NCBI GenBank assembly: GCA_016699975.1
Contig: CP064994.1
Location: forward strand, 711,828-775,827
Reading direction: 5' to 3'
Length of the DNA stretch: 64,000 nucleotides
DNA from: Candidatus Moraniibacteriota bacterium
GTDB taxonomy: Bacteria > Patescibacteriota > Minisyncoccia > Moranbacterales > UBA1568
Below are positions 6,283 through 42,052 of this stretch, in pieces. The position numbers were made by a program, and so were the translations under genes. Numbering within the stretch: the stretch's first letter is position 1; each line of letters starts with the position of its first letter. Under the pieces are notes generated by a model. The model saw only the letters and a program-made list of their open reading frames with translations, ran no database searches and was not told the origin of the DNA.

Positions 6283-6312
6283 AACTTCCCCAAAATTTTT
6301 TCACTTGGCTTT

Positions 6313-20324: not shown

Positions 20325-21405
20325 TTATGTTGCCGAAACCATGAATTTCGAGTGATCCTTCTTCAGAAAACTTTCCATGAATTCGTCCAGTTTTCCATCA
20401 AGAACATCGGAGGCCTGCGGTGTTTCGTATTTGGTGCGATGATCTTTCACGAGCGTATATGGATGGAGCACATACGAACGAATTTGACTTCCGAACGCCG
20501 CACTCTTCTCGACCCCGCGTAATGAACGCTGCTCCGCCTCTTGTGCCTCCAATCTTTGCTGCTCGAGTTTGGCGCGCAGCATTGAAAGGGCGGTTTCTTT
20601 GTTCTGAAGTTGGGACCGCTCCGTTTGGCAACTCACGACGATACCGCTCGGAATATGTCGAATGCGCACTGCTGTTTCTGTCTTATTCACATTTTGTCCG
20701 CCCGCTCCCGACGAACGATAGGTATCCACTTCGATATCTTCGGACCGAATTTCCACGCCTTCCTTCGCAGAAAGTACCGGGAGCACTTCGACCGACGCGA
20801 ATGAAGTTTGTCGAAGGTGATCAGCATTAAAGGGTGAGAGTCGAACCAAACGATGCGTCCCCATCTCTCCAAAGAGATATCCGTACGCGTACTCGCCCGT
20901 TATTTCGATCGTTGCGCTTTTGATACCCGATTCGTTGCCGCGCAATTCTTCAAGGAGTCGCGACGAAAACTTCCGACGCTCTGCCCATCGCACATACATT
21001 CGCACGAGCATCTCCGCCCAATCCTGAGCATCGACACCACCAGCTCCACTCTTTACCGAAAGAAGAGCACTATGACGATCATACGGCCCATCGAAGTTCG
21101 TCCGAAATTCCAACGCCTCGATCTCCGAAGCAATATCCGCAAACTCCCGTTCAAGTTCGACAGCCTCTTCTTTTTCCACTTCAAGACTCGAGAGCTCTCG
21201 AATATCAGAAAGCTCCTTTTCCAACCGGTCGAAGAGCGCAACTTCAGACTGGAGAGACTCTCGCTCCTTGAGAATATGCGACGCCTCTGTGCTCTTACTC
21301 CAAAATTCCTCTTGTTGCGATTCGCGATCAAGTTCTGTGACGCGCGATCTTTTGTGTGCGACGTCAAAGAGAGTCCCGCAAGTGCAGGAGTTTTCGAGTC
21401 ATCAT
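20325..21405 (-). CDS. prfB: peptide chain release factor 2, with a programmed +1 ribosomal frameshift
   Basis: GGQ motif ([21 protein letters not shown]) and an RF2-type body. ORF1 is ATG ATG ACT CGA AAA CTC CTG CAC TTG CGG GAC TCT CTT TGA C, ending in the canonical CUU UGA C shift site (reverse complement of 21363-21369). The +1 frame continues as [58 protein letters not shown]... and joins the 299-aa ORF. Confidence 0.9.
21363..21369 (-). promoter_or_regulatory. prfB: RF2 autoregulatory +1 frameshift site (CUU UGA C)
   Basis: The heptanucleotide CTTTGAC sits 13 codons into prfB ORF1 with an upstream GGGA SD-like element. The downstream +1 frame encodes the conserved RF2 N-terminal domain. 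Confidence 0.85.
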
Positions 21406-21514
21406 TTCGGCTCGCGTCCGAATATCATCCATAGCAAAATGATATCATATTTTTCTCCTCAATTCCAATCGAGAGAAAAGAAGAAAAAAATTCTCCCAGA
21501 AAGGAGAATGTGTG

Positions 21515-22442: not shown

Positions 22443-22525
22443 TTTTTACCCTCCTCAGAAATGTCAAAAAACAACAAAGAGCCCTCTGGCTCTTTGAGAC
22501 TTTAGCACAGGATTTTTTCTTTGAA

Positions 22526-22974
22526 AACCCCCTACCTCCCCGCTCCCTGCACCTGCCACAAGAAGGAGGAACAGGAAGTATCCCGACACCCACACTTCCA
22601 GGCACCGTTTTGTACAGAGCAGGTCATCCCGACAAAGGTAACGGGTGTCTGTGCACTCGTTGTATCAATATTCGCATGAGTCACTGTTGCTGTGACAGGT
22701 CCCTGGCACCAGTTTCCATTCTGTGTCCCACTACAAGCCCCGGTGTACTCAACCCAGCTACTGGTTCCAGGATTGTACCAATACCCCTTTGTGTACGAGA
22801 CTCGTGTTTGATTTCAGGAATCCCTATCGTTGCCTTCAGGGGTATGGATGTCACTTGCAGTACACTCTGCGGCAACAAGAGGCGTATTTGAAAGAAAGAG
22901 GTCAAAGGGACTGCCATAGCCTCCGGGGAGAGAAGAAGAAGGAGTGAGGGTAGAGCAGGGGGAGAAGGTGGGGG
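22526..22974. repeat. inverted repeat copy A (about 450 bp, near-identical to the reverse complement of 41460..41906)
   Basis: The reverse complement of 41460-41906 matches base for base apart from two homopolymer-length differences and a few substitutions. It encodes the shared C-terminal Cys/Trp-rich domain. Confidence 0.85.
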
Positions 22975-24760
22975 AATTCGAAAGCGTCGTTGCAGAGACG
23001 ATGTTACTCCAGATGGAATTGTTTCCGGAATCGTCGATTGCTTGCACACGATAGAAGTATTGCGTTGATGGAGAAAGGAGTGTATCAGAAAAAGATGTTT
23101 CGGTAGTAAATTGAACCGTTGACGGTGAAGTGCACGATACATCCAAACAGCGATCTACTTGATAGGTAGCAATACCAATATTGTCGGTCGATGCGACCCA
23201 CGAGAGATCTATTCGGGAATCGGAAACCGCAAGAGCAGACAATGTTCCTGGAGAAGTTGGAAGTTCATTCTCTATGAGGAATGTTTTCCCTTCCCACGGA
23301 TCCGAAACAACAACATTCCCGGCGGGATCCTGTGCCGAAGAAAAAGAAACAGACACCACCCCTTCTTGTGAACCTGCCGTATAGACATACGAATAATGAC
23401 TTTCATCGACCTTGGTCATATCCGCCTCGACCAGCGTTGCCGCACCCGAAAAAGAAATTTTTGGTGTTGGTATATCGCTCACTGGTTCCCCAAAAGAGGC
23501 AACAAGAGTTATCGAGCCTCCTGATTTAATGGAGGCCTTCTGTGGCGAATACGCAACACCGGCGCGTGGGGAATCGATATCGATAAATGGATCCGAGAGT
23601 ATCAGCCGATAGACCCCCGTTTGACTGAAAGCATAGACCACATTCGAAGTTCCGGGATTCGTTACGACACTCTCGAGAGTAACGTCCGAAAGATTCTTGT
23701 TGAGAGGAAACCACGCATTACTTGCCTCATCTTTCATTCGATAGATCCCCTTCCCAGATACTGCCGCGTACGCAATATTCGCTTCAGAGTAGTCACTTGC
23801 TACTGATCGGACGGGAAGTGCTCCAAATCCTCTATTGTGCTCGCTCCATACCTGTCCCAGTTCGTTACTTTTTTGTACCCCGGTCATCGTGGAAAGCCAC
23901 ATATTTGCACCACGCGCATGAAGAAGAGAAATATCATTCAGCGACAAAGGAGACGGGAGAGAAACCAAGGACCAGGATTCATCGGTTCCCGAAACAGAAA
24001 AAAGCGGGCTTGAAAACAACTTGTTCGACGCCGTCACAGCGTAGAGCTTTCCATTGACAAAGTCACTACTCAGTTTCAGCACGGACTCTCCTTCCATGCC
24101 AGCATTCTTGAGAGACCAACTGTCTCCACCATTATCGCTTCGAAACACTCCGGCTCCCGTAGCGACATAGAGCTGAACAAAACTCGATTGATCCAGCTCT
24201 ATATCTTTTATGGAGGTGTCGGTGAGCCCAACGTTCGAAATCGTCCATGAATTCCCGCCGAGTGTTCCGCGAAAGAAACCGTTTTGCGTTCCGATAAAAA
24301 CCGGGGAGGCCGCATTTGCTTCATAGAGAAACGAGGAAGTGTTGTAGGTCCAACCAATAGCGAGTGCGGTTATGTTCAGGTTCGTGAGACCCGTATTGAC
24401 GGGGAGAAATACGCTTCCGCGATCCGCACTTCGGTACAATCCCTGGTTCGTTCCCACATAGACGAAATCGTTCATCGAAATGACCGATTGAAATACGTAC
24501 CCGGAAGTGCCCGAGGGTGTAATGGTTTCCCAAGCATCACTCGCATGAACGGAAGCGGTGTGAAAGAAAGAAAAATAGAAAAGGAGTGCAAAAAAAATTC
24601 CGCTAACACGAGCTGCTCGTCGCGAGAGAGTACTCATATTTGTTTGAAAGAAATTTACGAGGCGCTTTTCTTTTTTTTGATTCTCTGTCGAGAGAGCCGG
24701 GATTTGAATGACTCGAAAGTAAGGAATACGAACGACAGAAGCTTTGTTTTTCCTCCACAC
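22814..24760 (-). CDS. large secreted BNR/beta-propeller-repeat protein; the true 3' end probably extends to about 22530 through two homopolymer indels
   Basis: Signal peptide (GIFFALLFYFSFFHTASVHA) and repeated SxDxGxTW-like propeller motifs (YRSADRGSVF, FRSDNGGDSW, SNELGQVW). Fn3-like segment. The final 40 aa (PTFSPCSTLTPSSSLPGGYGSPFDLFLSNTPLVAAECT...) begin a domain whose DNA homology with gene 40358..41902 continues about 290 bp past the annotated stop. Confidence 0.6.
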   Translation of the reverse strand: MWRKNKASVVRIPYFRVIQIPALSTENQKKEKRLVNFFQTNMSTLSRRAARVSGIFFALLFYFSFFHTASVHASDAWETITPSGTSGYVFQSVISMNDFVYVGTNQGLYRSADRGSVFLPVNTGLTNLNITALAIGWTYNTSSFLYEANAASPVFIGTQNGFFRGTLGGNSWTISNVGLTDTSIKDIELDQSSFVQLYVATGAGVFRSDNGGDSWSLKNAGMEGESVLKLSSDFVNGKLYAVTASNKLFSSPLFSVSGTDESWSLVSLPSPLSLNDISLLHARGANMWLSTMTGVQKSNELGQVWSEHNRGFGALPVRSVASDYSEANIAYAAVSGKGIYRMKDEASNAWFPLNKNLSDVTLESVVTNPGTSNVVYAFSQTGVYRLILSDPFIDIDSPRAGVAYSPQKASIKSGGSITLVASFGEPVSDIPTPKISFSGAATLVEADMTKVDESHYSYVYTAGSQEGVVSVSFSSAQDPAGNVVVSDPWEGKTFLIENELPTSPGTLSALAVSDSRIDLSWVASTDNIGIATYQVDRCLDVSCTSPSTVQFTTETSFSDTLLSPSTQYFYRVQAIDDSGNNSIWSNIVSATTLSNSPTFSPCSTLTPSSSLPGGYGSPFDLFLSNTPLVAAECTASDIHTPEGNDRDS

Positions 24761-24942
24761 ACCAAGTTCCCAAATAAAGAAGGAAGAAAATTTCGGAAAC
24801 TCTTTTCAGAACTCGGCAGCAGTTTCCTTACTATCTCCCGAGAATTCGGCACTGTTTTGTAAAGGAGAGAGTACAAAGATCATTGTAGAGAATTCTCTTC
24901 GAAACATCAAATAAAAAGTCATTCAATAAATTAAAATTACTT

Positions 24943-27579
24943 CTATTTTCCATGACATCGTTTATATTTTTTCCCACTCCCACAAGGACACGGGTCATTG
25001 CGCCCCACTTTGGAGGTCGAAGCAATTGGTTTTTGGAGACGCTTCGAATTTTCGGAATCACTATCGGAAAACGAGACTGTTTCTTCGGCCCCTCGATACT
25101 CAGCATTTTCGGGAAGCGGCACTTCCGAAGCGGCCGGCAAGGCCTTCACTCGAAACACGGTCGAGAGGTACGTCGTCCGAATACTTTCGAGAAGAACGAC
25201 AAACATAGTAAAGGCTTCCCGTTTGTATTCGACGAGCGGATCGCGCTGTCCGTATCCGCGCAGCCCTATTCCCTGGCGAAGATATTCGATTTCATCGAGA
25301 TGATTCATCCACAGAGCATCGAGCGTCCGAAGAAAGAGTGCTCGCTGAATCGCTTCCCACGCTTCTTTGCCAATCTCTGCCTCCTTTTTTCCATATTCTA
25401 CTTTTCCCTCTCCTGATAGAAATTCGAGCGCCGAACTGACTTTCATGGGCTGATCTTTCGATATGTCTTGAATCGTTTTATGAAGGAGAGCGAGCGATTT
25501 TTCACGATGAAGCGGAAAGAGCGATTCTGTCTCCCGCACAATACCGTCCGCATTCCATTCTCCTGACTCCGAAACCGCATGCCCCGAAAGAATTTTCTCA
25601 AGCTCCTCACTCAAGAGGCGCATCGTTTCACTTCTCATGTCGCGCGTTTTGAGTACGCTTCGGCGACGCCTATAGATCACCTCGCGCTGTTTGTTCATGA
25701 CATCGTCGTAGTCGAGAACGTGCTTTCGAATATCAAAATTGAATCCTTCGATCTTGTTTTGCGCACTCTCGATCGTACGAGAAATGAGTCGATTCTCGAT
25801 AGGTTCATCTTCCGGCAGACGCAGCGTCGTCATCATGCTCTTCAAACGATCCCCGCCGAACCGTCGCATGAGCTCATCTTCGAGCGACACAAAAAATTGT
25901 GAATTCCCCGGATCTCCTTGGCGACCCGCCCGTCCGCGAAGCTGATTGTCGATGCGTCTCGCTTCATGCCGTTCGGTCCCAAGAATGAAGAGTCCGCCAC
26001 GCTCGCGAACGCCTTCACCGAGCTTGATATCGGTCCCGCGACCCGCCATGTTGGTCGCAATGGTCACCGCACCCTTTTCCCCCGCTCGCGCCACAATCGC
26101 CGCTTCACGCTCGTGATTTTTGGCGTTCAACACTTCGTGAGGAACTCCGAGCTTCCCGAGAAGCCCACTCACATATTCGGACTTTTCGATCGCGATCGTT
26201 CCAACCAAAACGGGTTGGCCCGTTTCATGAAGGCCACGGATACGATTTACGATGGCACGAAATTTTTCTTCTTCGGTTTTGTAAATGACATCCGGAAGAT
26301 CCTTCCGGATCATCGAACGATTGGTAGGGATTTCAATTGAATCAAGCTCGTACACCTTCCGAAATTCTTCCGCCGAAGTCATCGCGGTTCCCGTCATGCC
26401 GGAAAGTTTTTCGTAGAGACGAAAGTAATTTTGAAAGGTGATCGTGGCGAGCGTTCGCGATTCTTTTTGCACCGCGACGTTTTCTTTGGCTTCGATCGCC
26501 TGGTGCAGTCCGTCACTGTAACGCCGCCCCACCATGAGGCGCCCGGTAAAGTCATCTACGATAATGACTTCGCCGTCTTTCACGACATAATCGCGATCGC
26601 GCTGAAAAATCACTTCCGCCTTGAGCGATTGTTCGAGGTGATGCACATACTGGACCCGCCCCGATTCGTAAATATTCCCAATGCCGAGCGCCGATTCGAC
26701 CTTGGCAATTCCCGCTTCCGAAAGAGAAACCGATTTCATTTTTTCGTCGACCGTGTAGTCATCCCCGCGCTTCAGCCCCGGCACGATACGCGCAAACTGT
26801 CGGTAGAGTTTCGTCGACTCCGCGTCGGGCGCCGAGATAATGAGCGGGGTCCGCGCCTCATCGATCAAGATCGAGTCGACTTCATCGACAATCGCGAAAA
26901 AAAGATCGCGTTGCACCATTTCTTCTTCACTGCGCACCATGTTGTCACGAAGATAATCGAATCCGAACTCGTTATTTGTCCCGTACGTAATGTCCGCCGC
27001 ATAGGCCTCCCGTCGAGAAACAGGGATCAGATTCTGAGGTTCCACACTTACTTCGTTGTGGTCGATGACGGTTGGTTCGTAGCGATACGAAATACCCTGC
27101 TGCAAGATGCACGCCGTCGAAAGTCCGAGCGCGCTATAGACCGAACCCATCCAGTTGGCATCGCGTTTCGCAAGGTAGTCGTTTACAGTAACAACATGAA
27201 CTCCTTTCCCCGCAAGCGCATTCAGGTAAATCGCCAAGGTCGACGTGAGCGTCTTTCCCTCGCCCGTTTTCATTTCGGCGATTTTCCCTTGGTGAAGTGC
27301 GATACCGCCCATCAACTGAACATCATAATGCCGCTCTCCAATCACCCGTTTCGCCGCTTCGCGAACGACAGCAAACGCTTCAGGAAGAAGCATCTCCAGG
27401 GTCGCGCCTTTTGAAATTCTTTCTCGAAATTCTTCAGTTTTTGCGCGCAGCGCTTCATCCGAGAGTGCGCTGATTTTCCCGTCGAGACGATTTATTTTTT
27501 CCACTACTGGACGAAATTTTGCAATCACGCGATCGTTGGAACCGAAGAGTCGGCTAAAGAAGCTCATAAAATACACCAT
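24943..27579 (-). CDS. secA: preprotein translocase ATPase SecA
   Basis: 878 aa with DEAD-like motor motifs, a preprotein cross-linking domain, and a C-terminal zinc-binding tail ([14 protein letters not shown]). Confidence 0.95.
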
Positions 27580-27772
27580 TCAAAATCAAAACGCATTCAA
27601 ATACCATTCAAATACTTGGGAACTGCTGCAAAAAGACTGGGAAGCAAAATGGCGTCGGTTTTCCAGGCCCTCCCCTCTCACAAACGCCGAAACTCTTCCT
27701 CAGTGTACGGAGAAACTGAGATGAAGTCAAAGCACGATTTTCGAAGTCGAACATGGAAAACGCAACAAAAAT

Positions 27773-28126
27773 TCAGAGTCGCGCTTCTCCGGCTATGGTC
27801 AATCGCTTTTTGATACTCCTGCCGCCACGGCGGAGTAAGTCGTTTCGTTTCTCTTTGTGTTCGACAATTTGCCGCTCAATATCGTCGATTGCCGCATCAA
27901 TGGAACCCTCAACACTCTCGGTCATTTCTTCGGATCGGAAGAGAAGCTTTCGCGGCAACACAACCATCACCTCCACACGAAATTGATTCTTTTTGTTTCG
28001 GTCGACTTCGACTTCGATCGAGTCGGCAGGGGTCAGAAGCTTCTTAATGCGAAGAAGACGCTTCGACACATACGCCATTTGCTTTCCGTCGAGTTCGACT
28101 CCCTGAAAGAGAAATCGCGTTTTCAT
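27773..28126 (-). CDS. hpf: ribosome hibernation promoting factor / RaiA (short form)
   Basis: 117 aa. The beta-alpha-beta-beta-beta-alpha pattern and conserved basic residues match the S30AE / YfiA family. Confidence 0.75.
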   Translation of the reverse strand: MKTRFLFQGVELDGKQMAYVSKRLLRIKKLLTPADSIEVEVDRNKKNQFRVEVMVVLPRKLLFRSEEMTESVEGSIDAAIDDIERQIVEHKEKRNDLLRRGGRSIKKRLTIAGEARL

Positions 28127-28404
28127 ATCGTTGCAGAAAAAAATTATATGTCTGGTATAGAAAACACGGCTCCAATGCTTTCAAAATTATTGACTCACAT
28201 TCGCAGAAGTTCGTTTCAAAAATGCTCCACCCTCTTCCCTTTCAAATATCATGTGAGGAAACCCCCCACAAAGAGGAGGAGCATGAAAGTGAGTTTGAAG
28301 GAAACACTTTCGATTGCCAAAAGAGGAGACACGGTACTCTGGTGCAAATCTTTTGAAGTATATTCTTCTCTTCTCAACAAGTGATCTGCTTTTTTTCAAA
28401 ACTT

Positions 28405-29340
28405 TCAAAAGCCGACCATCTGCACTTCTTCCCGAAGAATAATACCGAGCTCCGAACGAACTTTTTGCTTCACAACACTCGCGAGAATGAGAATATTTTC
28501 CGCCGTAGCAGTTCCGACATTGAGCAGATAATTTGGATGAATATCACTCACGCGCGCACCACCGATTTGTTTGCCGCGGAGTCCCACATAGTCGATAAGC
28601 CAGCCGGCAGGAAGCTTTTCATCCTTCACGACCATACCCGTCTCTTTTTCAAATTCCTCACGAAGCCTTGCATCCTTGACGGGCGGATTCATGAAAAATG
28701 ATCCAGCACACAAAAGACGCTGTGGATGTTTTTGTTCGCGCGTTGCAATTGTCTCGCGCATAATTCTTTCGAGAACGGCAGGATCCGCACCCGGCTGCAA
28801 AAGAAAATGTGCCGACACAACGACATATTCGGGATGCTGCTTAAAAAGACTCGAGCGATAGCGAAATTCGCAGGCAGCGCGTTCGCGATGTTCGAAGGTA
28901 AGCGTGCGCCGATCGAGTATCCGAACCGACGCGACTGCCTGTGCAGTTTCCGCGCCAAAGGCACCTGCATTTCCCCGGACCGCTCCTCCCACTGTACCGG
29001 GAATACCAGCAAGTCGTTCGAGACCAGAAAGACCGTGCTCTTTCGCGTACTCAAGAAGCGCATGGAGTGACGCACTCGCGCCAACACTGAGCTGTCCCGG
29101 CGCCACTTCGCGCATGTCGACACACTCCATTTTTATTACCAACCCTTCCCAACCGCGATCCGAAAAGAGCACATTGCTTCCTCCTCCCAAGACAAAGACC
29201 GGCTCATTGTTTTGGTTTGCCCACTTAAATCCGTCCAGCAAATCTTGTTCCGAAGTCGCACGGAAAAAAAAGCGCGTCTTTCCTCCCACCCGAAATGTGG
29301 TGAACGAATGGAGATCAACATTTTCTTCAACATGGATCAT
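28405..29340 (-). CDS. murB: UDP-N-acetylenolpyruvoylglucosamine reductase
   Basis: FAD-binding N terminus (FTTFRVGGKTRFF...VLGGGSNVLF) and MurB C-terminal domain. The likely start is the MIHVEEN methionine. Confidence 0.85.
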   Translation of the reverse strand: MIHVEENVDLHSFTTFRVGGKTRFFFRATSEQDLLDGFKWANQNNEPVFVLGGGSNVLFSDRGWEGLVIKMECVDMREVAPGQLSVGASASLHALLEYAKEHGLSGLERLAGIPGTVGGAVRGNAGAFGAETAQAVASVRILDRRTLTFEHRERAACEFRYRSSLFKQHPEYVVVSAHFLLQPGADPAVLERIMRETIATREQKHPQRLLCAGSFFMNPPVKDARLREEFEKETGMVVKDEKLPAGWLIDYVGLRGKQIGGARVSDIHPNYLLNVGTATAENILILASVVKQKVRSELGIILREEVQMVGF

Positions 29341-29371
29341 AGTAGAGAAGGACAATACAATAAAAGAAGTA

Positions 29372-30791
29372 TCACAGCGATACCGAAACAAGTTCTTTCC
29401 CAATTTTCCACACATCGCCCGCTCCGAGCGTTACGAGAAGATCGTCTTTTCCCACCCTTGAGGAAAAATGAGCAATCACGTCTTCTTGTGTTGGAAGGTA
29501 CATCGCTTTATTTCGAGAATAGCGATTCATCAGCGTTACCATCTCGTGAGAAGAAACACCTCCCGCCGTTTCGCGGGCGCTTCCATAAATATCAAGGACG
29601 GCAACCTGGTCTGCGGCATCGAAGCTCTGGGCAAATTCAGGAAGAAGCGCTTTGGTACGAGAAAACGTATGTGGGTGGAATACCGCAATAATATTTTTTT
29701 CTGGGAAAAGTTCGCGGAATGCCGAAAGTGTTGATTTTATTTCTTCCGGATGATGCGCATAGTCATCATAGATGACTGCTCCGTTTCGCTCCCCAACATA
29801 TTCGAATCTTCGAGCGGTGCCGAAAAAGTTTTCCATGCCGACACGAATCGCATCGACATCAAATTTGAGGGCCCGAAGCAGCGTAACAACTGCACAAGCA
29901 TTGAGCGCATTATGCCGACCTGCGAGTCGCAGGCGAAATGTGCCCAAATCTTCTTCCCCTTCGAAGAGGCGGAACGATTGATGAAATGGTCCTTCGAGTA
30001 TTGGAGCATATTCGGAAATTCTTATATCGTTTCCGGGAAGAAAACCGTAGGAACGTTTTTCCGCTCGGGCGGACTTTGCGACGTCGAGCACTGCCGCACT
30101 GTCTCCCCAAAACACCAGAAAGCCGTGGGAGGGGATGCGCGAGACAAGTTTTCGAAACACTTCTGTATACGAGGCCATATCAGGAAAGAAGTCGGGGTGA
30201 TCCCAATCAAGACTCGTGAGAAGAACGCTCCAGGGAGTATAGTATTCGAATTTATTCTGATATTCATCGGCCTCCGCTACAAAATACAAACCCGCCCCCG
30301 GAAGCGCATTTCCGCCCCAGGAAGAAATTTTGCTCCCAACAAGCGCGAGCGGATCAACACCCAAAAATTTGAGTGTTTCCGAAAGAAGCGCGCTGGTCGT
30401 CGTCTTGCCGTGCGTCCCCCGTCACCAAAATTGAGAGTCGTTCTCGTGTGAGCGCCCCAACTGCTTCGGGATAGCTCATCACCCTCACCCCTTCTCGCGC
30501 GAAGGCACTCGCGAGTTCCGCATTTGTATCCGGTTTGTACGCGGTCGAACACACAATTGTATCGCTATCTTGAGGAATATTCCTCGGGTCGAATCCCTCA
30601 ATCGGCTTTATGCCACGCTTTGCAAGCACATCGTCGGTAAAAAATCGTTCACTCGTATCGGATCCGGTCACACGTATGCCTCGTGACGAGAGAATTTCGG
30701 CAAGAGCAGCCATACCGGCACCTTTGATGCCGATCATATGGACGCGCTTCACAGAAAGAAGAGAGGGTTCTGATTGAGTAAAAGCAATCAT
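29372..30791 (-). CDS. murC: UDP-N-acetylmuramate--L-alanine ligase (split by a +1 insertion in a C5/G5 homopolymer at 30416-30420)
   Basis: N-terminal ORF (HMIGIKGAGMAALAEIL...) and C-terminal ORF (DDYAHHPEEI...) both match MurC. Removing one G from GGGGG restores ...SILVTGTHGKTTTSALLSETLKFLGVDPLALVGS..., a perfect Mur ligase P-loop. Confidence 0.85.
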
Positions 30792-30885
30792 AGATCCAGA
30801 AAAATGGAGAGCTTTACGAGGGGGAAAAAAGATCGACAAAGAAGAGGGAAAGAAAGAGGAGAGGATGCTCCGCAAAGAGATTTTT

Positions 30886-32070
30886 CTAGGAGCGACGCCA
30901 CGACGCTCTCCACAGCAATACCCGATCGAGAAGCGTCTTCCGAAGTTCTTTCTCTCGGATGAGTGAAACGATTCCCTCCGCAATGCGAAGACCCGCGTCT
31001 TCATGATCGAAGGTTTTCATTGCTTCTCCCATCCGGAGACGAAGCTGATCTTCCATAAGGAGTTGCTCAATTTTCCCGAACAACATATTCTCTCCGAGAT
31101 TTCCCTCTTCGAGAACGAGGGCACCGCCGACGCGCGCCATTTCGTAGGCATTCATGCGCTGTTCATCGTTTGCGGCGGACGGAAGCGGAATGAGAATGGC
31201 CGGCTTCCCTACCGCCGCGATTTCGGAAATCACATTCGCTCCCGCTCGAGAGACCACGAGATCGGCAAGAGCAAGGGCGTCGGAAAGCTCTCCGGTATCC
31301 AAGAACCCCGAGAAAAAGTATCGGCCCGAGAGATCTCCCAATGCGAGTTCATTTACTTGCTTCGTTACCTCCTCGTAATTCCCCGCACCGGTTTGATGAA
31401 TCACAAAAAACTTTTCAAGAAGGCGAGGCAAGATACGAATGAGTGCAGCATTCACCGCGCGAGCGCCGAGACTACCCCCCACAAAAAAAATCGCGAGTTT
31501 TCCTGGCGGACATCCGAATCGCTCTCGGGCGCGCGAAGCGGAACCTGTTCGAATTCCTTCGCGCACTGGATTTCCGGTAATTGCGACACGCCGCGCCTCA
31601 AAGAAGCGTGCGGCCGAGGGATACGCGACTGCGATTCGATTGGCAAATTTTCCCATGATTTTGTTGGCGACTCCTGGCGTCGCATCGGAATCATGGGTGA
31701 CGAGAGGAATGCGATATATCCACGCCGCAAACACCACCGGCACCGCCGCATACGCCCCTTTCGAAAACACCGCTTCCGGCATGTATCGGTACAGAAAATA
31801 GAGAGATTGAAAAAATCCCGCGATATTTTTGAAAATATCCGTCATATTTCGAAAGTCGAAGGGACGGCGCCATTTTCCGGAGAGCACTTTCTTCGAAGCA
31901 ATGCCCGACTCCCCGATAATCTTTTTTTCGAGCGCTCCCGTCGGACCCAGGTACAGAAACTCTGTTTCAGGTCCAAGAAGACCGCGCAGCTCCTTTGCAA
32001 TCGAAACAAGCGGAAAGATATGCCCTCCTGTTCCGCCACCCGCAAGGACGATGCGATATCGCTTTTCCAT
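30886..32070 (-). CDS. murG: undecaprenyldiphospho-muramoylpentapeptide beta-N-acetylglucosaminyltransferase
   Basis: Starts MEKRYRIVLAGGGTGGHIFP (the MurG G-loop) and has a GT28 C-terminal domain. Confidence 0.9.
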   Translation of the reverse strand: MEKRYRIVLAGGGTGGHIFPLVSIAKELRGLLGPETEFLYLGPTGALEKKIIGESGIASKKVLSGKWRRPFDFRNMTDIFKNIAGFFQSLYFLYRYMPEAVFSKGAYAAVPVVFAAWIYRIPLVTHDSDATPGVANKIMGKFANRIAVAYPSAARFFEARRVAITGNPVREGIRTGSASRARERFGCPPGKLAIFFVGGSLGARAVNAALIRILPRLLEKFFVIHQTGAGNYEEVTKQVNELALGDLSGRYFFSGFLDTGELSDALALADLVVSRAGANVISEIAAVGKPAILIPLPSAANDEQRMNAYEMARVGGALVLEEGNLGENMLFGKIEQLLMEDQLRLRMGEAMKTFDHEDAGLRIAEGIVSLIREKELRKTLLDRVLLWRASWRRS

Positions 32071-32110
32071 AGTACATTCTCTTTTTTTGTATCGGGATAT
32101 GAAGGAAAAA

Positions 32111-33254
32111 CTAGACTCTTTTCCCTTCCAGTGTAGATTCTTTCCCGATCCGTATCAAGATGCCCATCGCACAGAGAAGAAACACGACAGACGTCCCGCC
32201 ATAACTCACGAAAGGAAGGGGGATCCCCGTGAGTGGAATAAGGGCAGTCGCAGCGGCAATATTGATAAAAGCCTGGAAGAGAACCCACGCAACAATACCC
32301 GTTGCGACATAACGCCCGAAATCATTGGAGGCATTTTTTGCGATTCGCAGTCCTTGCCAGGCGATGAAAAGAAACATCCCCAGCAAAAGAAGAGAAACAA
32401 GGAACCCCCACTCCTCGGCAAAGACGGCAAAGATAGAATCGGTCACGGGTTCGGGAAGGTAGTTGAACTTTTTGTCGGCTGTAGCCGAGCCCTGCGCCGA
32501 ATATTCCTCCGCTTCCGATCGCTATGAGTGCCTGGTTTACCTGATATCCAGCACCCTGCGGATCAAAGTCAGGATTGAGAAAAACGAGGAAACGCTGCAA
32601 GCGGTACGGTGCCATCCGAATAAGAACGCCGAGAGACACGAGTCCCAAAACAAAAAGGCCAAAGAGGTGCATGAGCCGCGCGCCCGCCACAAAATACATC
32701 GCGAGTGCCACCAAGAAAATAAGCCCGAACGTTCCTGTATCGGGCTGCTTCAAAATAAGAAAACCAAGCAAGCCGACGATCACGAGAAACGGCACAAGAT
32801 CCTCGAAAAAATCTCCCGCGAGCGTTCGCTCCCGACGCGAAAACCACGCTGCAAGGTAAACGATAAATGAGAGTTTGGCCATCTCGGATGGCTGAAAAGA
32901 AAACGGGCCGATCGAAAGCCATCGACTCGCTCCGTAAACGCGCTCGCCAATGCCCGGCAAAAGAACCGCTACCAGCGCAAGGAGTGTCACGAAAAAAAAC
33001 GGCAGAGCAAATGTTCTCCAAAAAGAAATCGACACTCTTTGGAAAAGAAAAAAAGCGATGAGCCCTACCCCGACACCCATAAGCTGTCGCTTCAAAAAGA
33101 AGTAACCGTCTCCGAAACGAGTTTCCGCATAAAACACTCCCGCACTCGCAACAGTCAGAAGACCGATCGCCACCAAGAGGAGGACGACCGCGGAAAGACT
33201 CTTCGTATGAACAGCTCTCGAAGATTTCATGGGCATGTCCGAAATTCCTTTCAA
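32111..33254 (-). CDS. ftsW: SEDS-family cell division protein FtsW/RodA (split by a +1 insertion in a T5/A5 homopolymer at 32469-32473)
   Basis: The N-terminal ORF reads TM helices up to GLGYSRQK, and the C-terminal ORF reads DSIFAVFAEEWGF...PLPFVSYGGTS. Removing one A gives SRQKFNYLPEPVTDSIFAV, the canonical SEDS motif. Confidence 0.8.
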
Positions 33255-33443
33255 AAAATCTTCTCGTTACACCGCAATCACGATTCGATCGAGAAGCACT
33301 TTTGAAAATGCTCGGGCTCGTCTTTAGATATTGTTTTATTCATCGCGAGAACTTTCCAAGGAAAACGAGAGGAAGAGAAATGGAGGAGAACTGTTTCTCT
33401 TCTCGTGAAGCAGGAAACACGAAGAGCGGCAAACCAGCAAAAC

Positions 33444-34156
33444 TCACGTCGAAAAAGAGGCTTGAGGTGAATCGGCATCCTCTGTACGGGAAGAAGTTGT
33501 GCGGCGCTCAGCGCGTCGCCACGCTTCGATGGCCGCGTGATTCCCGCTTAGAAGCACGTCGGGAACACACCAGCCGTTAAAACATTCGGGTTTCGTATAC
33601 TGCGGATACTCGAGCACCCCTTCTTCGGCATGCGATTCGGTCTTGGCGCTTTCTCCATTCCCGAGCACGCCCGGAACGAGACGCGCGATTGCATCAGCCA
33701 CAACGAGCGCCGCGAGTTCACCTCCCGTCAACACAAAATCTCCGATCGAGAGTTCTTCGTCCGCAACATGCTCTGCCACGCGCTCGTCGACGCCTTCGTA
33801 TCGTCCGCAAATAAAAATAAGTTGATCGTATGCAAGAAGGCGCTTCGCATCTTTTGAGAGAAGCGCTGTCCCTTCGCCGACAAGAGGATGACTCGCGTAC
33901 GCGAAAGCTTCCCTGATTCGTTTTCCAAAGATCGAACCGCTTCAACAGCCCGGAATATCGGCTCTCCCTTAAGCACCATGCCCGCCCCCCCACCGTAGGG
34001 CGTGTCGTCCGCTTTGTGGTGCTTATCGGTCGTAAAATCACGGATATCGTGAACGGAAAAAAAGAGGAGTCCTTTCTCTTGCGCGCGCTTCAAAATAGAT
34101 TCGCCAAGATACGGCAAACACATGTTCGGAAAAAGCGTGAGAATATCGAATCGCAT
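33444..34156 (-). CDS. trmD: tRNA (guanine37-N1)-methyltransferase (fragmented by frameshift(s))
   Basis: N-terminal [15 protein letters not shown]...[18 protein letters not shown], and a C-terminal ORF in another frame ([30 protein letters not shown]...NHAAIEAWR). Together they match the TrmD SPOUT fold. Confidence 0.75.
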
Positions 34157-34236
34157 ATCCGCATAGTATCACGCCTCTGACCGTCAAAAAAGAGAAACCC
34201 CTCACACGTGTGTGAGGGGACAATTACATTTCTCTC

Positions 34237-34536
34237 CTACCTTGGGGGAGGAAATAAATAAAATGGAAACAGGGGCGGACCAAAATTATGTTGCTCACGA
34301 AGATTATTTCTTCTCATTCTCTCCCAGTTCTTTTTCCTTTGCTGTCGTATACTTTTCCAATCATCACAGTCACGGTATTCAAAGCAGCGACACCTCCAAA
34401 AGCTATCTCCATCAAGACCTCGACAGACATCTGTCCTTCGATGGCCATAATGTGGATATTCCTCCTGCCATAACGGAGAAGCAGAGGATAAAGATGTAGC
34501 CAATAAACAAAGAATACCTACAACAAAAGCTTTCAC
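34237..34536 (-). CDS. small secreted Cys-rich protein (GTG start)
   Basis: AAGGAG RBS six nucleotides upstream of GTG. Signal-peptide-like N terminus (V)KAFVVGILCLLATSLSSASP. The mature part has six Cys and ends Pro/Phe-rich. About 99 aa. Confidence 0.4.
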   Translation of the reverse strand: MKAFVVGILCLLATSLSSASPLWQEEYPHYGHRRTDVCRGLDGDSFWRCRCFEYRDCDDWKSIRQQRKKNWERMRRNNLREQHNFGPPLFPFYLFPPPR

Positions 34537-34687
34537 TGTTTTCTCCTTTCCCCAAAATAAAGAGGGGAAATAAAAGTTGAAGGAACTACACGAGCATTCT
34601 CTTCGTAACAAAAAGGGGAGAGTTGTCCAGAGGACATCATTTTCTTTCTTTCCTTTTCGAGTTGTCTGTGCTGGCCTCGAGGAGCAC

Positions 34688-34716
34688 AAAGAGGCGGGAC
34701 GAACCCGCCTCTTTTT
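34688..34716. terminator. GC-rich hairpin terminator downstream of dnaK
   Basis: aaagaggcggg-acgaac-cccgcctcttt, 25 bp after the dnaK stop. It is followed by T-runs on the plus strand and a CUCUUU tail on the minus-strand transcript. Confidence 0.4.
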
Positions 34717-34741
34717 CTCGTGAATCCGAAACTGATTCTCG

Positions 34742-36649
34742 CTATGCCTTCGTTTCGCGCTCTACCTCCGCATCTTTTGGCTCCCCTTCGGGCGTAGAAG
34801 GAGCTTCCGACGATCCGGCCTTTTCCGGACCCGAGGAAGTATTTTCTGATGCCGCTTTGTAGAGCTTCTCACCGATTTTCTGCGCCGCTTCGGAGAGTTT
34901 CTGCGAGGCCTTCCGAATCGATTCGAGATCGTCGCCGTTTTTCACAGCATTCAATTCGGTGATCGCTTCTTCGACCGGTTTCTTTTCATCTCCCGATACT
35001 TTGTCTCCCGCGTCGCGAAGCGCTTTCTCAGTCGTATACACCAAACTGTCTGCCATATTTCTCGTCTCAACGAGTTCCTTCTTTCGCTTGTCTTCCTCGG
35101 CATGAAGTTCGGCGTCTTTTTTCATGCGTTCGATTTCTTCTTTCGATAGTCCCGTCGACGACTCAATGCGAATAGATTGCGTTTTATTAGTTGCTTTATC
35201 CTTTGCGGTTACGGAAAGAATCCCGTTCGCGTCGATATCAAAGGAAACTTCGATCTGCGGAATGCCGCGCGGCGCAGGCGGAATGCCGTCTAAGATAAAT
35301 CGCCCAAGCGATTTGTTATCGGCAGCCGTTTCACGCTCGCCCTGAAGCACATGAATCTCGACAGAAGGCTGACTATCAGCCGCCGTCGAAAACGTTTTCG
35401 ACTGAGAGATCGGCACCGCCGAGTTCGCATCAATAATTGGCGTTCGCATTCCACCCAAAGTTTCGATCCCAAGCGTAAGGGGGGTGACATCAAGAAGCAG
35501 CACGTCTTTTACCGATCCTTTCAAGACCCCTCCCTGGATCGCCGCACCGACTGCCACCACTTCGTCGGGGTTTACCGAAATGTCCGGCTTCTTCCCAAAA
35601 AACTCTTCTACCGTTTTGAGGACAAGCGGCATCCGGGTCATCCCTCCTACCATCACTACTTCGTTGATATCGGACTTGGAAAATCCCGCGTCGTGAAGTG
35701 CCTTTTTCACGGGTTCGAGGGTTGCCATCACAAGATCGTGCACTAACTCTTCCAGTTTTGCGCGCGTAAGTTTCATGACGAGATGCTTCGGACCCGAAGT
35801 ATCGCTTGTGATGAACGGCTGGTTGATTTCAGTGTCCTGTGCGGTCGAGAGTTCGATTTTCGCCTTTTCCGCAGATTCCTTAATGCGCTGGAGCGCCAAT
35901 GGATCTTTCGAAAGGTCGATACCTTCTTGTTTTTTAAATTCATCAAGAATCCAGTGAATCACTTTTTGATCGAAGTCATCACCGCCCAAGTGGGTGTCAC
36001 CATTGGTCGATCGCACTTCTACCGTATCGGCCGCTACTTCGAGAATAGAAATATCAAAAGTTCCACCGCCAAGATCATAGACGGCGATTTTCTCATCTTG
36101 TTTCTTGTTGAAGCCGTAGGCAAGCGCCGCCGCCGTCGGTTCATTGATGATGCGCCGCACCGTGAGTCCGGCGATTTCCCCCGCTTCTTTCGTTGCCTTT
36201 CGTTGTGAGTCGTCGAAATATGCGGGAACCGTGATCACCGCTTCCGTAATTTTTTCTCCCAACCGATCTTCGGCATCAGTCTTCAGTTTTTGAAGAATCA
36301 TCGCCGAAATTTCTTGCGGGGAATATTCCTTGCCGCCCATCACCACTTTTACTCCCTCGCCTGCCTTCACGATTTTGTAGGGGAGCGTTTTGCGGTCTCG
36401 TTCCACTTCCGGGTCGTCGAATCGTCGTCCGATAAGGCGCTTGATGGAGAAAAGCGTATTCTCCGGATTCGTGACGGCCTGACGCTTCGCGAGAAGTCCC
36501 ACGAGTCGCTCACCGGTTTTTGAAATTGCCACCATCGATGGCGTCGTGCGATTCCCTTCTTTATTTTCTACGATCGTCGGAGTTCCTCCTTCGACAAACG
36601 CCATCGCCGAATTCGTCGTTCCAAGATCGATACCAAGTATTTTACTCAT
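34742..36649 (-). CDS. dnaK: molecular chaperone DnaK (Hsp70)
   Basis: 635 aa. [16 protein letters not shown] and the other Hsp70 signatures are present. Confidence 0.95.
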
Positions 36650-36708
36650 ATGACCTGCCTTTAAAGATATTAATAATCACATTTTCACTTCTCTTTCCTT
36701 TCTCTTTT

Positions 36709-36735
36709 CGTCCCTCGAAATGCTTTCGAGGGACG
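36709..36735. promoter_or_regulatory. perfect 12-bp stem-loop between hsp20 and dnaK
   Basis: cgtccctcgaaa-tgc-tttcgagggacg. No U-tract on either strand. Possible processing or attenuation element within the operon. Confidence 0.3.
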
Positions 36736-36752
36736 CCGAAGAAACGGGAAGT

Positions 36753-37166
36753 CTACTTCACATTGACCGCGATTCGTTTCGGCTTCACTTCTTCCGCCTT
36801 GGGAACGGTGATGGTGAGAAGTCCCTTTTCATAGGAAGCATCCGCCCGATCGCCTTCCACTTTCATCGGAAGAATAATGGAGCGAGAGAATTCGCCGCGG
36901 TGAATTTCTTTGCGATAGTAGTCTTCGCGCTTCACCTCACTTTTCTCTTCGCTCGCGCCAGACACCGTGAGCACGTCGTTCTCAATCATGATGCTTACCT
37001 TCGTCGGATCGATATCCGGAAGTTGAAAATCAACGATCACGTTGTCTTTGTCTTGACGGATATCAACGGCGGGAGCAAACCCGCGCGCCCACACGTCTTC
37101 GTCAAAGAAACGATCAAGTTCGCGCATCGGTGACCAGTGAATAATACCTCGAGTCATAGTACTCAC
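36753..37166 (-). CDS. Hsp20/alpha-crystallin family small heat shock protein
   Basis: 137 aa with an alpha-crystallin domain (VDIRQDKDNVIVDFQLPDIDPTKVSIMIENDVLTVSG...GEFSRSIILP...ADASYEKGLLTITVPK). GGAGGTGA RBS. Confidence 0.85.
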   Translation of the reverse strand: MSTMTRGIIHWSPMRELDRFFDEDVWARGFAPAVDIRQDKDNVIVDFQLPDIDPTKVSIMIENDVLTVSGASEEKSEVKREDYYRKEIHRGEFSRSIILPMKVEGDRADASYEKGLLTITVPKAEEVKPKRIAVNVK

Positions 37167-37422
37167 CTCCTTTCTAGAAAAATATTTTCATGTTTTTTAC
37201 GATCTCATGTTTCTCTCACTGCTTTCATCGAAGAGCGCCACAGTAACAGTGCGCATCTCTTTTTCGGAATGTTCTACAACAACTTGAGTGGAAGCGTGGA
37301 GCGAGAGTGAGTGAGATCCCATATTCGCCAAGAGAAATTCTTAGCCCTCTCATCCTTCTTAATGTTCTGTCCCTTCTCCAACACCTCCGCACCCTTTTCG
37401 CCGTCCCACTTTCGAATTTTCA

Positions 37423-38292
37423 TCAGCTCGTTACTACCTTCGCCGGACGAACTACACGCGTGCCGATCAGGTATCCTGGCTGAAGCATCCGAACAATCTT
37501 TCCTTCATTTCCTTCTCCTTCTCGACTCACCGCCTCGTGCCGATGCGGATCAAATTCTTCGCCTTCTTTCGCTTCGAATTTGACAAGACCCTGACGCTCA
37601 AGCATTTCTTCTATCTGCTTGCCAATATAGGTAAGTCCCGTCATCCACGAATTTTCTTTCTCACTCTCTGGGACATGGAGCGCCGCAGCGCGAAAGTTAT
37701 CGAGAATCGGTATCATCTCGAGCGAAAATCGCTCAGTGCACCGTGAAGAAAGTTCTTTCATTCGCTCCTCTTGCCGGCGTTTGTAATTTTCGAAGTCCGC
37801 AGAAATACGTTTCACATCATTCAAGTATCCATCCTCCCGGAGCCGCTCCATGGCGAGTGTCACAAAATACTTCACCATCTCTCCGTATTCTTCTGTGCTC
37901 TCCACTCCTTCGGCATTCACCCATCGATATTCGTCATACGCTACACCAAGCTGAATGTCCCCCGAGAGAAAAGAAGTAAGAGAGCCGATCACAATGACTC
38001 GTTCCCCCGAATATTCCGCCGGAAATACTCCGACAAATTTCGGAACGTCAACTTGTATATCTCCCACCGCCTTTGCTTCGATATCTCCTTCCGGAAAATC
38101 CCAGGCGCCGTACTTTTGGGCAAAAGAGGTGCTGGTATCCGCGGAGTGAAGGAGGAGAAACGCGTTTTTCTCAGCGTGAAAAATAATCAGTCTGTGTGAC
38201 ACTTCAAACAATTCCCGTTTGCTGGGGACACTCGTTTTTTCATGTGCGATTTTTGTATGCATATGTGTGGAGGTCAAAAATTTTCTGAGCAC
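37423..38292 (-). CDS. grpE: nucleotide exchange factor GrpE, with an approximately 150-aa in-frame N-terminal extension
   Basis: The C-terminal 150 aa are canonical GrpE (ISADFENYKRRQEE...LDNFRAA...QPGYLIGTRVVRPAKV). The in-frame upstream region (LLLHSADT...GAWDFPEGDIEAKAVG) has faint Nudix-like character. No stop codon separates the two parts. Confidence 0.7.
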   Translation of the reverse strand: MLRKFLTSTHMHTKIAHEKTSVPSKRELFEVSHRLIIFHAEKNAFLLLHSADTSTSFAQKYGAWDFPEGDIEAKAVGDIQVDVPKFVGVFPAEYSGERVIVIGSLTSFLSGDIQLGVAYDEYRWVNAEGVESTEEYGEMVKYFVTLAMERLREDGYLNDVKRISADFENYKRRQEERMKELSSRCTERFSLEMIPILDNFRAAALHVPESEKENSWMTGLTYIGKQIEEMLERQGLVKFEAKEGEEFDPHRHEAVSREGEGNEGKIVRMLQPGYLIGTRVVRPAKVVTS

Positions 38293-39035
38293 TGAGAGAA
38301 CACAACGAGGAGAAGGGTTCCCCCAGATCCGCCAATCATGCGTCGCATATATTCGAGGAGGGATTTATTCTTCGCATAGCGCATACGCTTCGGGCCGATG
38401 ATTGCCAGTACCCCGCGATCTCCGTCCGCATTTCGATATGGCGAAACCATCATGGAGCAGTTGGAGATTTCTTTAATCGGATTCTCGGCACCGATAAAAA
38501 TTTGAATCTCACCATCTTTCATTTTAAGAAGAAGCTGATCAAGCTTCTCATCAATCGAATCGAGCGCTTCGACCAATCGACAAACTTCGTCGAGCTCCCG
38601 AAACTCCGGCTCTTCGATAAGTTCCTTCATGCCGAAATCGTAGAACTCGTCGCGATTCACTACTCCCGACACCGCAAGACTCCCGGAAAGCGTCGATAAC
38701 AATTTCGCCGTCGTCCGCGCCAGTCGCGCGTTACGCGCTTCGAGGACCAAGAGTTCTTTTTTAAGTTGTGCTTCTTCTTCTTTCGAGAGCGTTTCCTCCT
38801 TCATGCCATGCTCGATATAGAAGCGGTATCCTTTGTCGGTTGGGATCCGTCCCGAAGAAACGTGCGGCTGATAGAGATACCCTTCTTCTTCGAGTGCCGC
38901 CATATCATTTCGTACGGTCGCGGCGGAAACCGGGAATTTAAAACGAGACAGAAGGGCTTCCGATCCAACAGGGAGCGCACTCTTCGTGTAGAGCTCGATT
39001 ACTCCCGCCAAAATGTCCGTTTGCCTTCGATTCAT
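38274..39035 (-). CDS. hrcA: heat-inducible transcription repressor HrcA
   Basis: The N-terminal winged helix (ILAGVIELYTKSALPVGSEALLSRFKFPVSAATVRNDMAALEEEGYL) and overall 253-aa architecture match HrcA. Confidence 0.85.
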   Translation of the reverse strand: MNRRQTDILAGVIELYTKSALPVGSEALLSRFKFPVSAATVRNDMAALEEEGYLYQPHVSSGRIPTDKGYRFYIEHGMKEETLSKEEEAQLKKELLVLEARNARLARTTAKLLSTLSGSLAVSGVVNRDEFYDFGMKELIEEPEFRELDEVCRLVEALDSIDEKLDQLLLKMKDGEIQIFIGAENPIKEISNCSMMVSPYRNADGDRGVLAIIGPKRMRYAKNKSLLEYMRRMIGGSGGTLLLVVFSQCSENF

Positions 39036-39055
39036 AGCCCCAGTATATCATGAAA

Positions 39056-39082
39056 TTAGCACTCGTCAAGTGTGAGTGCTAA
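39056..39082. promoter_or_regulatory. CIRCE operator (HrcA binding site)
   Basis: TTAGCACTC-GTCAAGTGT-GAGTGCTAA is an exact 9-N9-9 CIRCE consensus. It lies 21 bp upstream of the hrcA start codon. Confidence 0.9.
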
Positions 39083-39365
39083 TTTCGTGATCTCCGGTAT
39101 TTTTGGCTTTAATAAGCCGCCGAGGAGAGCGAGGGGCAGGGTCGTACCCACCGGGAGAGAGCGAATGACACCGAAGAAGGCGGCGAAGTCCAAGGTACAT
39201 TCCTCGCAGGACACCAAAGCGCTCAAGGGACTCGCGCATATACTCGGAACACGACGGGAAGAAGCGACACACACGAAGCGGAAGTATCTTTCCAAGAGCT
39301 CCATGCTCCAAGGAAAGTGTTTTTTGGTAGAGGCGGAGAAGTGCAAGAAGAACTGCTTTCAGCAT
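39066..39365 (-). CDS. yidD: membrane protein insertion efficiency factor YidD
   Basis: The [11 protein letters not shown] motif matches the YidD CRFxPSCSxY signature. About 99 aa counted from the internal Met. Confidence 0.7.
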
Positions 39366-39443
39366 AAAAATTTCCGGAAAAAATTTCTTCGGAGCACATC
39401 GTGATATAATAAAAAAACTTTTCTCCATTCGATACGCAATTCC

Positions 39444-40351: not shown

Positions 40352-40357
40352 AAAAAT

Positions 40358-41902: not shown

Positions 41903-41906
41903 GGGG
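41460..41906. repeat. inverted repeat copy B (partner of 22526..22974)
   Basis: See copy A. This copy is in frame within the 514-aa ORF. Confidence 0.85.
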
Positions 41907-42052
41907 TTTACATGTTCAAGTTAAGAAAGATAAAAAAAGAGGGAAGAAAAATTTTTGTCGCCTGAACCAAACAAAAATCATGGACGAACGAACAATTCTT
42001 CGTAAGAATATATACTCGCCACAAACAAGAAAGAGCACCTGAGAAAACCTTC

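Follow-up and report, generated by a model that had tools for sequence, protein, structure and literature searches.

A near-identical, cysteine-rich module at the 3' ends of secreted-protein genes of Candidatus Moraniibacteriota bacterium, probably kept alike by gene conversion

The carbohydrate-binding modules (CBMs) catalogued in CAZy are small, autonomous, all-beta units which secreted multi-domain enzymes carry at one or the other terminus, or which stand alone. SLH domains, dockerins, and cell-wall-binding repeats of bacteria that lack an outer membrane are likewise terminal modules of free position, which are common to many secreted proteins of one genome and occur there in several paralogous copies. 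Paralogous sequences such as tuf, the rRNA genes, and certain C-terminal cassettes of surface proteins are subject to concerted evolution, which leaves near-identity including synonymous sites and sharp cassette borders, and inverted copies of rrn operons or insertion sequences (IS) are known to bracket chromosomal inversions. A locus that recalls each of these systems is described here. It lies in a stretch of 64,000 nucleotides of Candidatus Moraniibacteriota bacterium (contig CP064994.1, positions 711,828 to 775,827; hereafter, the window), in which two secreted-protein genes, designated A and B, share the DNA of one C-terminal module in inverted orientation on either side of an 18.5-kb segment. 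From the evidence below it is likely that the module is encoded by a mobile domain cassette homogenised by gene conversion, that it serves as a binding module, and that the indels which disrupt the copy in gene A are sequence errors. What is modestly new is the domain family; the inverted repeat itself is no new kind of element.

An original prediction, made from the letters of the window, had proposed the repeat as near-identical DNA, and this is borne out. Self-BLASTN of the window yields one joined match, 41460-41912 versus 22974-22522, with 98.2% identity over 454 columns (793 bits, E = 0). It is the sole non-self match in the 64 kb, so that chance is excluded, and the similarity is not merely one of amino acids; the predicted arm coordinates were correct within 4-6 nucleotides (nt). 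Repeat finding between 20 and 44 kb resolves the arms into two abutting inverted blocks, 22522-22815/41619-41912 and 22840-22974/41460-41594, and the uninterrupted identical runs between them extend over ~104 and ~127 nt. At an arm length of ~453 nt, the differences amount to six substitutions (C/T, G/T, G/C, A/G, A/C, and T/A) and two single-base indels, which corrects the earlier statement that two homopolymer differences were the only ones. Five of the substitutions are coding, four of them synonymous and one leading to an Ala/Ser exchange, and the sixth lies after the stop. According to the MAFFT alignment, the codons for (S/T)-P-T-F-S-P-C mark the precise onset of identity, which extends to ~10 nt past the TAG stop codon, the flanks of the two arms being unrelated on both sides. 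The domain start PTFSPCSTLTPSSSLPGGYG and end CGCRDTSCSSFLWQVQ were given correctly, as judged by translation.

The two carriers have unrelated N-terminal parts, followed by the near-identical 146-amino acid (aa) domain rich in Cys and Trp, just as had been proposed. Signal peptides of typical appearance can be read at the starts of genes A and B and of a third carrier, QQS21366.1 (P0003). The product of gene B is composed of the signal peptide, a right-handed parallel beta-helix (~26-366, ending in the conserved YPHPLA), and the module directly thereafter. By direct scan, no Pfam family is assigned to gene B, and none to the 93-aa remnant of gene A. The assignment of gene B as a parallel beta-helix is nonetheless upheld by the 132 homologues of its passenger found in a word-index search, several of which have PF13229 or PF12708 and bear the name "pectate lyase superfamily", by an AlphaFold2 model with the fold of a right-handed beta-helix (pLDDT 92.5), and by 21 Foldseek matches of that model to PDB entries at E <= 1e-3. 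The best of these are RbmB, PL6 alginate lyases, chondroitinase B, inulin lyase, and pectin methylesterase, and the passenger of gene B, judged from its model, is a probable polysaccharide lyase or hydrolase, albeit a putative one. Gene A encodes a signal peptide, an Asp-box-like region, an FN3 domain (Pfam, E = 3.6e-7), and the module up to its residue 45, where a premature TGA intervenes. It had been described as "BNR/propeller-like"; Asp-box-like motifs are indeed visible (SDNGGDSW, SADRGSVF, and SNELGQVW), while the Sortilin-Vps10 match in Pfam is weak and below the cut-off (E = 0.013). When the N-terminal parts of both genes were searched against PDB sequences, matches were absent or insignificant. 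That other genes might carry the same 3' cassette, as the original prediction had considered, is confirmed by QQS21366.1, which lies outside the window on the same 1,048,819-bp record, a metagenome-assembled genome (MAG) of Ca. Moraniibacteriota. Its module is 99% identical, with 100% protein identity to copy A after correction (see below); it has no Pfam match of its own, and its N-terminal homologues are carriers of the FN3/LamG/TIG type.

The module itself spans ~146 residues and is cysteine-rich, secreted, and all-beta according to its sequence and AlphaFold2. Word-indexed searches with the domain and with its profile returned one and two proteins only, and an exhaustive HMMER search was needed to delimit the family. 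Among 1.84 billion representatives of 50%-identity clusters, this search gave 632 matches at E <= 1e-3, 127 at E <= 1e-10, and 33 at E <= 1e-30. In an alignment of 31 diverse members (A2), C40, C121, W128, C130, G131, C132, C137, and W142 are invariant, and C9, G53, Y63, Y67, W76, W91, D134, Q143, and Q145 are nearly so; the signature motif of the module is W-[KR]-C-G-C-[RK]-D-x2-C-x4-W-Q-x-Q. Six cysteines, i.e., the five invariant ones and C9, are thus conserved, and an optional seventh and eighth cysteine are present or absent together, a pattern that points to an extracellular module with three or four disulfides. Pfam-A 2025 produced only scattered single matches on the 31 members, all at E >= 0.014, NCBIfam r20 had no match on the module, and a profile search of PDB sequences found nothing (best E = 0.22). 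No paper on the domain was found in a literature search. The only named module carriers are Moraniibacteriota, and a scan of genome contigs returned one distant locus of that phylum. The model obtained by AlphaFold2 with A2 as input is all-beta, at a pLDDT of 96.8 and a pTM of 0.90. Foldseek gave no PDB match at E <= 1e-3, the best ones (E = 9e-3, TM <= 0.35) being faint resemblances to CBM21, beta-glucan-recognition, and Ig-like sandwiches, and nothing was found in BFVD.

As to the role of the module, its position and its partners are informative. Among the 143 best near-full-length matches, it is C-terminal in 72, N-terminal after a signal peptide in 52, stand-alone in 15, and internal in four. 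The Pfam partners in 87 full-length carriers are fn3 (19), TIG (9), LamG_3 (6), Polysacc_lyase (5), and Peptidase_M23 (3), followed by GH26, GH5, PL14, CAP, Beta_helix, and Pectate_lyase with two each and by GH16 and CHAP with one each. Because the module is found at either end or alone, and beside glycoside hydrolase (GH), polysaccharide lyase (PL), M23, CHAP, FN3, and LamG domains, its sequence context suggests a glycan- or envelope-binding targeting module that is independent of position rather than a C-terminal sorting signal. Through such a module, secreted enzymes and adhesin-like proteins would be held on a substrate, on the wall of the producing cell, or on a host cell. The original prediction had offered anchoring or sorting as a possible function, of which sorting is unlikely in view of the many N-terminal and stand-alone copies. 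A C-terminal sorting signal of the kind known from the C-terminal domain (CTD) of the type IX secretion system (T9SS), from LPXTG, or from PEP-CTERM proteins was rejected also because neither PF18962 nor any other sorting domain was matched. The protein ends in ...WQVQGAGR, without a hydrophobic tail.

With the CBMs, the module has in common its occurrence beside GH5, GH16, GH26, PL14, and a pectate-lyase-like beta-helix, often behind FN3/Ig linkers, and its weak structural echoes of CBM21 and beta-glucan-binding sandwiches. Unlike them, it lacks any Pfam, NCBIfam, or PDB sequence match and any significant fold match, it is unusually rich in Cys and Trp, and it is also found on M23 and CHAP peptidoglycan hydrolases and on non-enzymatic carriers; the binding function is a predicted one. 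To SLH domains, dockerins, and wall-binding repeats there is no kinship in sequence or fold, and instead of short tandem repeats a single disulfide-rich unit is present. A parallel is nevertheless seen in gene B, whose beta-helix homologues in other phyla carry a T9SS CTD, a dockerin, Big_7, or FN3 at the equivalent end.

The near-identity of the copies would be due to recurrent homologous recombination, i.e., gene conversion, which would keep them ~98-99% identical in DNA, with tracts bounded by the domain start and a few bases past the stop. The three copies of the source genome are 99-100% identical in protein (98% in DNA for the two in the window), while the closest modules from other sources share 55-62% protein identity. 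Between the arms, pS, the proportion of synonymous differences, is 0.038 and its non-synonymous counterpart pN is 0.003 (4 synonymous : 1 non-synonymous, binomial p = 0.014), so both copies are under purifying selection. The fusions appear to be older than this identity. The architecture of FN3 followed by the module is found in many lineages, and proteins only 25-29% identical to the passenger of QQS21366.1 also end in the module; from such carriers in distant relatives it follows that the fusion is old and the DNA identity recent. Old fusions combined with a young identity that is limited to the cassette indicate concerted evolution by gene conversion.

Related metagenome contigs point in the same direction. 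Their genome membership is inferred from a shared sample or contig, and on this basis, three further sets of loci show paralogous copies grouped by metagenome or contig. In L003 and L004, a 441-nt cassette is 98.9% identical in nt, with different junctions and flanks. The two copies a and b of L005 and that of L006, all from one metagenome, are 80-86% alike in nt, compared to 56-74% in aa to other groups. A 77-kb contig (L007; JGI 3300056827) holds, in an 18.5-kb stretch (1-18479), four module copies that together span no more than 12.5 kb, beside LamG-type secreted proteins; they are 75-85% alike overall, with a 207-nt tract of 99.5% identity between copies c and d that resembles a conversion mosaic. 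The L007 copy at 12029-12480 is frameshifted, a 3' fragment at 9695-9886 is 99.5% identical to part of it, and murD on this contig is called in two pieces. Among database representatives, modules of different carriers can be 90-97% identical. As similar copies cluster by sample or contig in the relatives, gene conversion or shuffling, which the original prediction had named, is the right class of explanation. The paralogous copies of L002 and of L008 have diverged, so that homogenisation is not universal. The situation is thus comparable to the concerted evolution introduced above, with paralogues clustering by genome and mosaic high-identity tracts in a related contig. It differs from the examples given there in that one domain of otherwise unrelated genes is homogenised, in a candidate-phyla host with a reduced genome, and in that neither silent donor cassettes nor a dedicated machinery were seen.

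The inverted arrangement would then follow from genes A and B happening to point outward from a block of housekeeping genes. These comprise secA, murB, murC, murG, ftsW, trmD, dnaK, grpE, hrcA, yidD, and corA and are almost all on the minus strand. The carriers examined on the related contigs L005-L008 are located on the same strand as each other, which makes the inverted layout appear incidental. Most likely, the repeat is a by-product of modular gene architecture, consisting of shared domain cassettes, and neither a regulatory element nor a switch.

In gene A, the module copy is disrupted. It reads ...HT-PEGNDRDS*-NQTRV..., compared to ...HT-LKATIGIPG-NQTRV... in copy B, because the C-run at 22839-22842 is one C too long and a G is lacking next to 22815. 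These indels are opposite in sign and ~25 nt apart, so the frame is regained after nine codons, and the TGA at 22814-22816 closes the shifted stretch. The copy-B reading is the conserved one, since P0001 has INLTTGVTG at this place and the alignment A2 agrees; the part beyond the TGA is annotated as a 50-aa fragment (P0036). Upon reversion of both indels, the module of gene A becomes identical to that of QQS21366.1 and differs from copy B in the one Ala/Ser residue. Beyond the break, none of the three substitutions changes an amino acid, and the terminator-like hairpin past the full-length stop lies where the end of a transcription unit covering the full-length open reading frame (ORF) would be expected. 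Gene A is most likely full length in reality, spanning 22532-24637, with the indels being errors of the consensus; the proposal that the real gene runs to about 22530 therefore holds, the most probable end being 22532.

Consensus errors are favoured because the changes are of the homopolymer type, because of the synonymous substitutions and the hairpin just mentioned, and because murC, ftsW, corA, trmD, and rmuC are also split or frameshifted. Four conserved single-copy genes (murC, trmD, ftsW, and corA) each match one family as two pieces, and at least six disruptions of conserved, mostly essential genes are counted in the 64 kb (Table 1). The consensus of the public record is probably prone to indels, and many of its "truncated" proteins would be artefacts. 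Records of the IPL87 type may stem from a Danish activated-sludge study that combined Nanopore and Illumina reads. In that study (PMC8012365), circular MAGs of Patescibacteria were recovered.

Several observations weigh against the interpretation given so far. The taxonomy of the family rests on two named records only, both of Ca. Moraniibacteriota; gene conversion is inferred from patterns, and neither donor, recipient, nor tract was observed directly; the module is present in 0 of 119 homologues of the gene B passenger, so that its fusion onto gene B may be recent; and two independent errors ~25 nt apart are improbable at ~1 disruption per 10 kb, the more so as copy B, with the same surrounding sequence, was assembled without error. 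The last objection would be met if gene A were a genuine pseudogene, with a real C insertion and G deletion and a protein truncated 45 residues into the module. The sequence is intact in the third carrier, too, and the public annotation likewise holds the truncated product. This is a possible reading, albeit a less probable one, given that both changes alter length by a single base, in a C4 run and a GG doublet, that genes unlikely to be dispensable are broken in the same way in the window, and that the synonymous substitutions and the hairpin argue for a functional full-length gene. Some candidate-phyla bacteria use genetic code 25, and recoding of UGA (code 25 or 4) would likewise rescue copy A, as after the compensating indels the sole obstacle is one TGA aligned to GGA (Gly) of copy B. 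It is practically ruled out. The window encodes release factor 2 (RF2), whose short upstream ORF ends in ...LRDSL at a canonical CTT-TGA-C site, and 11 of the 26 family-supported genes of the window end in TGA, from which it is concluded that TGA is a genuine stop in Candidatus Moraniibacteriota bacterium. Moreover, secA, dnaK, and similar long genes are uninterrupted under table 11, and the eight residues ahead of the TGA are out of frame with respect to the conserved sequence.

If the cassette had been newly copied onto unrelated 3' ends, the identity of the arms would reflect youth instead of homogenisation. Such recent shuffling would account for the lack of the module in the gene B homologues, of which those outside the candidate phyla radiation (CPR) end at YPHPLA, exactly where the cassette begins in gene B, and for the onset of identity precisely at the domain border. 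It is considered unlikely, since the fusion is older than the 98-99% identity in two or all three of the genes and since the similarity within genomes recurs independently elsewhere, including the mosaic tract of L007. In addition, the closest gene B homologue, P0155 (64% identical), runs into an FN3 domain where its sequence ends and may carry the module further downstream. A more far-reaching proposal sees in the module a lineage-specific attachment domain of Moraniibacteriota and related ultra-small bacteria, and in the cassettes recombination handles that would reshuffle passengers and occasionally invert DNA. We regard this proposal as doubtful at best; if true, it would describe a recombination-based system for the surface repertoire in a reduced genome, by which enzymes and adhesins are fastened to the envelope or to a host cell. 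The segment could be a functional invertible one, flipped by RecA or a recombinase so that passengers and modules are re-paired in the manner of phase or antigenic variation. The geometry envisaged for a RecA-mediated inversion is indeed right, with both N-terminal parts inside and both cassettes pointing outward, and identity over ~100 nt satisfies the substrate requirements of RecA, so that the longest identical runs are ample for homologous recombination. The predicted swap of passengers, however, would change one residue (Ala/Ser) and the 3' untranslated region only. The ORFs scanned near the arms and over the window included no recombinase, integrase, or reverse transcriptase, the carriers examined in L005-L008 do not share the inverted layout, and secA, mur, ftsW, and dnaK lie on the strand that the GC skew suggests to be co-directional with replication. 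Since this skew is -0.086 in the segment and -0.08 and -0.105 in its flanks, the assembled orientation appears to be long-standing. A scan of metagenome contigs for exact 23-mers returned only relatives of 65-76% identity. An inversion of the 18.5 kb is thus feasible, nothing in the analysis supports it, it would probably be counter-selected, and a functional switch is very unlikely. The arms recall inverted rrn operons or IS copies in their length, identity, and bracketing of a segment, and differ from these in being coding, in a nearly silent phenotypic outcome, and in showing no sign of a past or polymorphic inversion. The window also contains recJ (53957-55669, minus strand) and rmuC, the latter apparently frameshifted. 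The E. coli RmuC protein has been connected with the restriction of inversions at short inverted repeats. An assembly artefact, with one cassette entered at two places or the segment wrongly joined across a collapsed repeat, is highly improbable. An N-gap separates two slightly different copies in L001 (1-2093), the copies of L003, L004, and L005 lie within ~100 nt of a contig end, and that of L006 stops ~260 nt before its stretch ends; here, however, six substitutions and two indels distinguish the arms, each of which is joined in frame to an upstream ORF of its own and followed by unshared sequence, the record consists of one 1.05-Mb contig, a third copy is present elsewhere in the genome, and relatives share the architecture. 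As a separate observation, the multi-copy cassette routinely breaks related short-read metagenome assemblies (L001 and L003-L006). Diversity-generating retroelements (DGRs) are common in candidate-phyla bacteria, where they target the C-terminal ends of surface proteins. That the arms are the template and variable repeats of such an element can be dismissed with near certainty, as the window ORFs scanned contained no reverse transcriptase, the mismatches are not confined to adenine, four of the five coding differences fall on third positions and are synonymous, and both arms lie inside long ORFs.

Table 1: Positions of the repeat arms, their carriers, and the disrupted or frameshifted genes (window numbering)
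Feature	Position	Strand	Remarks
Arm A of the inverted repeat	22522..22974	-	Encodes the 146-aa module of gene A, TAG (22532-22534), and ~10 nt beyond
Arm B of the inverted repeat	41460..41912	+	Second copy of the cassette, 3' end of gene B; frame intact, TAG 41900-41902
Segment between the arms, 18.5 kb	22975..41459	.	N-terminal parts of genes A and B plus housekeeping genes
Gene A as assembled, QQS20653.1, IPL87_03740, 607 aa from ATG 24637	22814..24637	-	ORF listing extends to GTG 24760
Frame-shifted 9-codon stretch of copy A	22814..22842	-	PEGNDRDS* versus conserved LKATIGIPG
Rest of the gene A module, original frame, cut off by TGA	22532..22813	-	Alignment and translation
Terminator-like hairpin and T-run	22475..22496	-	36 nt past the full-length gene A stop
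Gene B, QQS20667.1, IPL87_03820, 514 aa	40358..41902	+	Intact ORF
Third carrier P0003, QQS21366.1, IPL87_02540	Outside the window, same record		Exact look-up
prfB (RF2)	Main frame 20325-21224, whole 21440..20325	-	Programmed +1 frameshift CTT-TGA-C at ~21369
murC, extra G in G5 run	30416-30420		Three-frame translation; two ORFs in different frames; removal restores ...VTG-THGKTTT...
ftsW, frame switch at A5 run (extra A)	~32469-32473		Three-frame translation; profile partly covered
trmD, two pieces	33444-33779 and 33728-34156		Match to one family
corA, frame switch at C4T4 run	~39627-39634		Three-frame translation; profile partly covered
Class-I glutamine amidotransferase (GATase), in-frame TGA	~43601-43604
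rmuC, apparent missing G creating TGA	58400-58402	-	Three-frame translation; gene 57961-59131 (-)

Immediately downstream of gene A, a 215-aa ORF (21795-22442, minus strand) with a weak FN3 match lacks the Cys/Trp module; it may encode another secreted protein of a small surface-protein cluster. Elsewhere in the window, the region 10001-18000 has a GC content of 0.37-0.42, compared to ~0.48-0.52 in the remainder, with positive GC skew at 10-14 kb, and contains a radical-SAM ORF (12235-13191) and an ORF with an Mrr-type restriction-endonuclease domain (15704-16741, minus strand); it may be a horizontally acquired island. The sole Rfam/ARAGORN matches in the window are tRNA-Gln(CTG) at 18070-18141 and tRNA-Thr(CGT) at 21514-21587, both on the minus strand. 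Long ORFs of 296-623 aa without Pfam match are located at 60943-62814 (+), 44270-45616 (-), 4933-6282 (+), 62898-63986 (-), and 3511-4401 (+).

In practical terms, the public assembly is probably indel-prone, and gene A as well as several essential genes are annotated as truncated. Beyond that, the locus illustrates concerted evolution at the level of a single domain in a 1-Mb genome. Cells of Patescibacteria are thought to live attached to other microbes, and the surface-protein parts by which they would attach are largely unannotated. With the present module, a sizeable, uncatalogued, and confidently foldable domain family is delimited, which decorates secreted glycan- and peptidoglycan-degrading enzymes and is a candidate for a Pfam or CBM entry.

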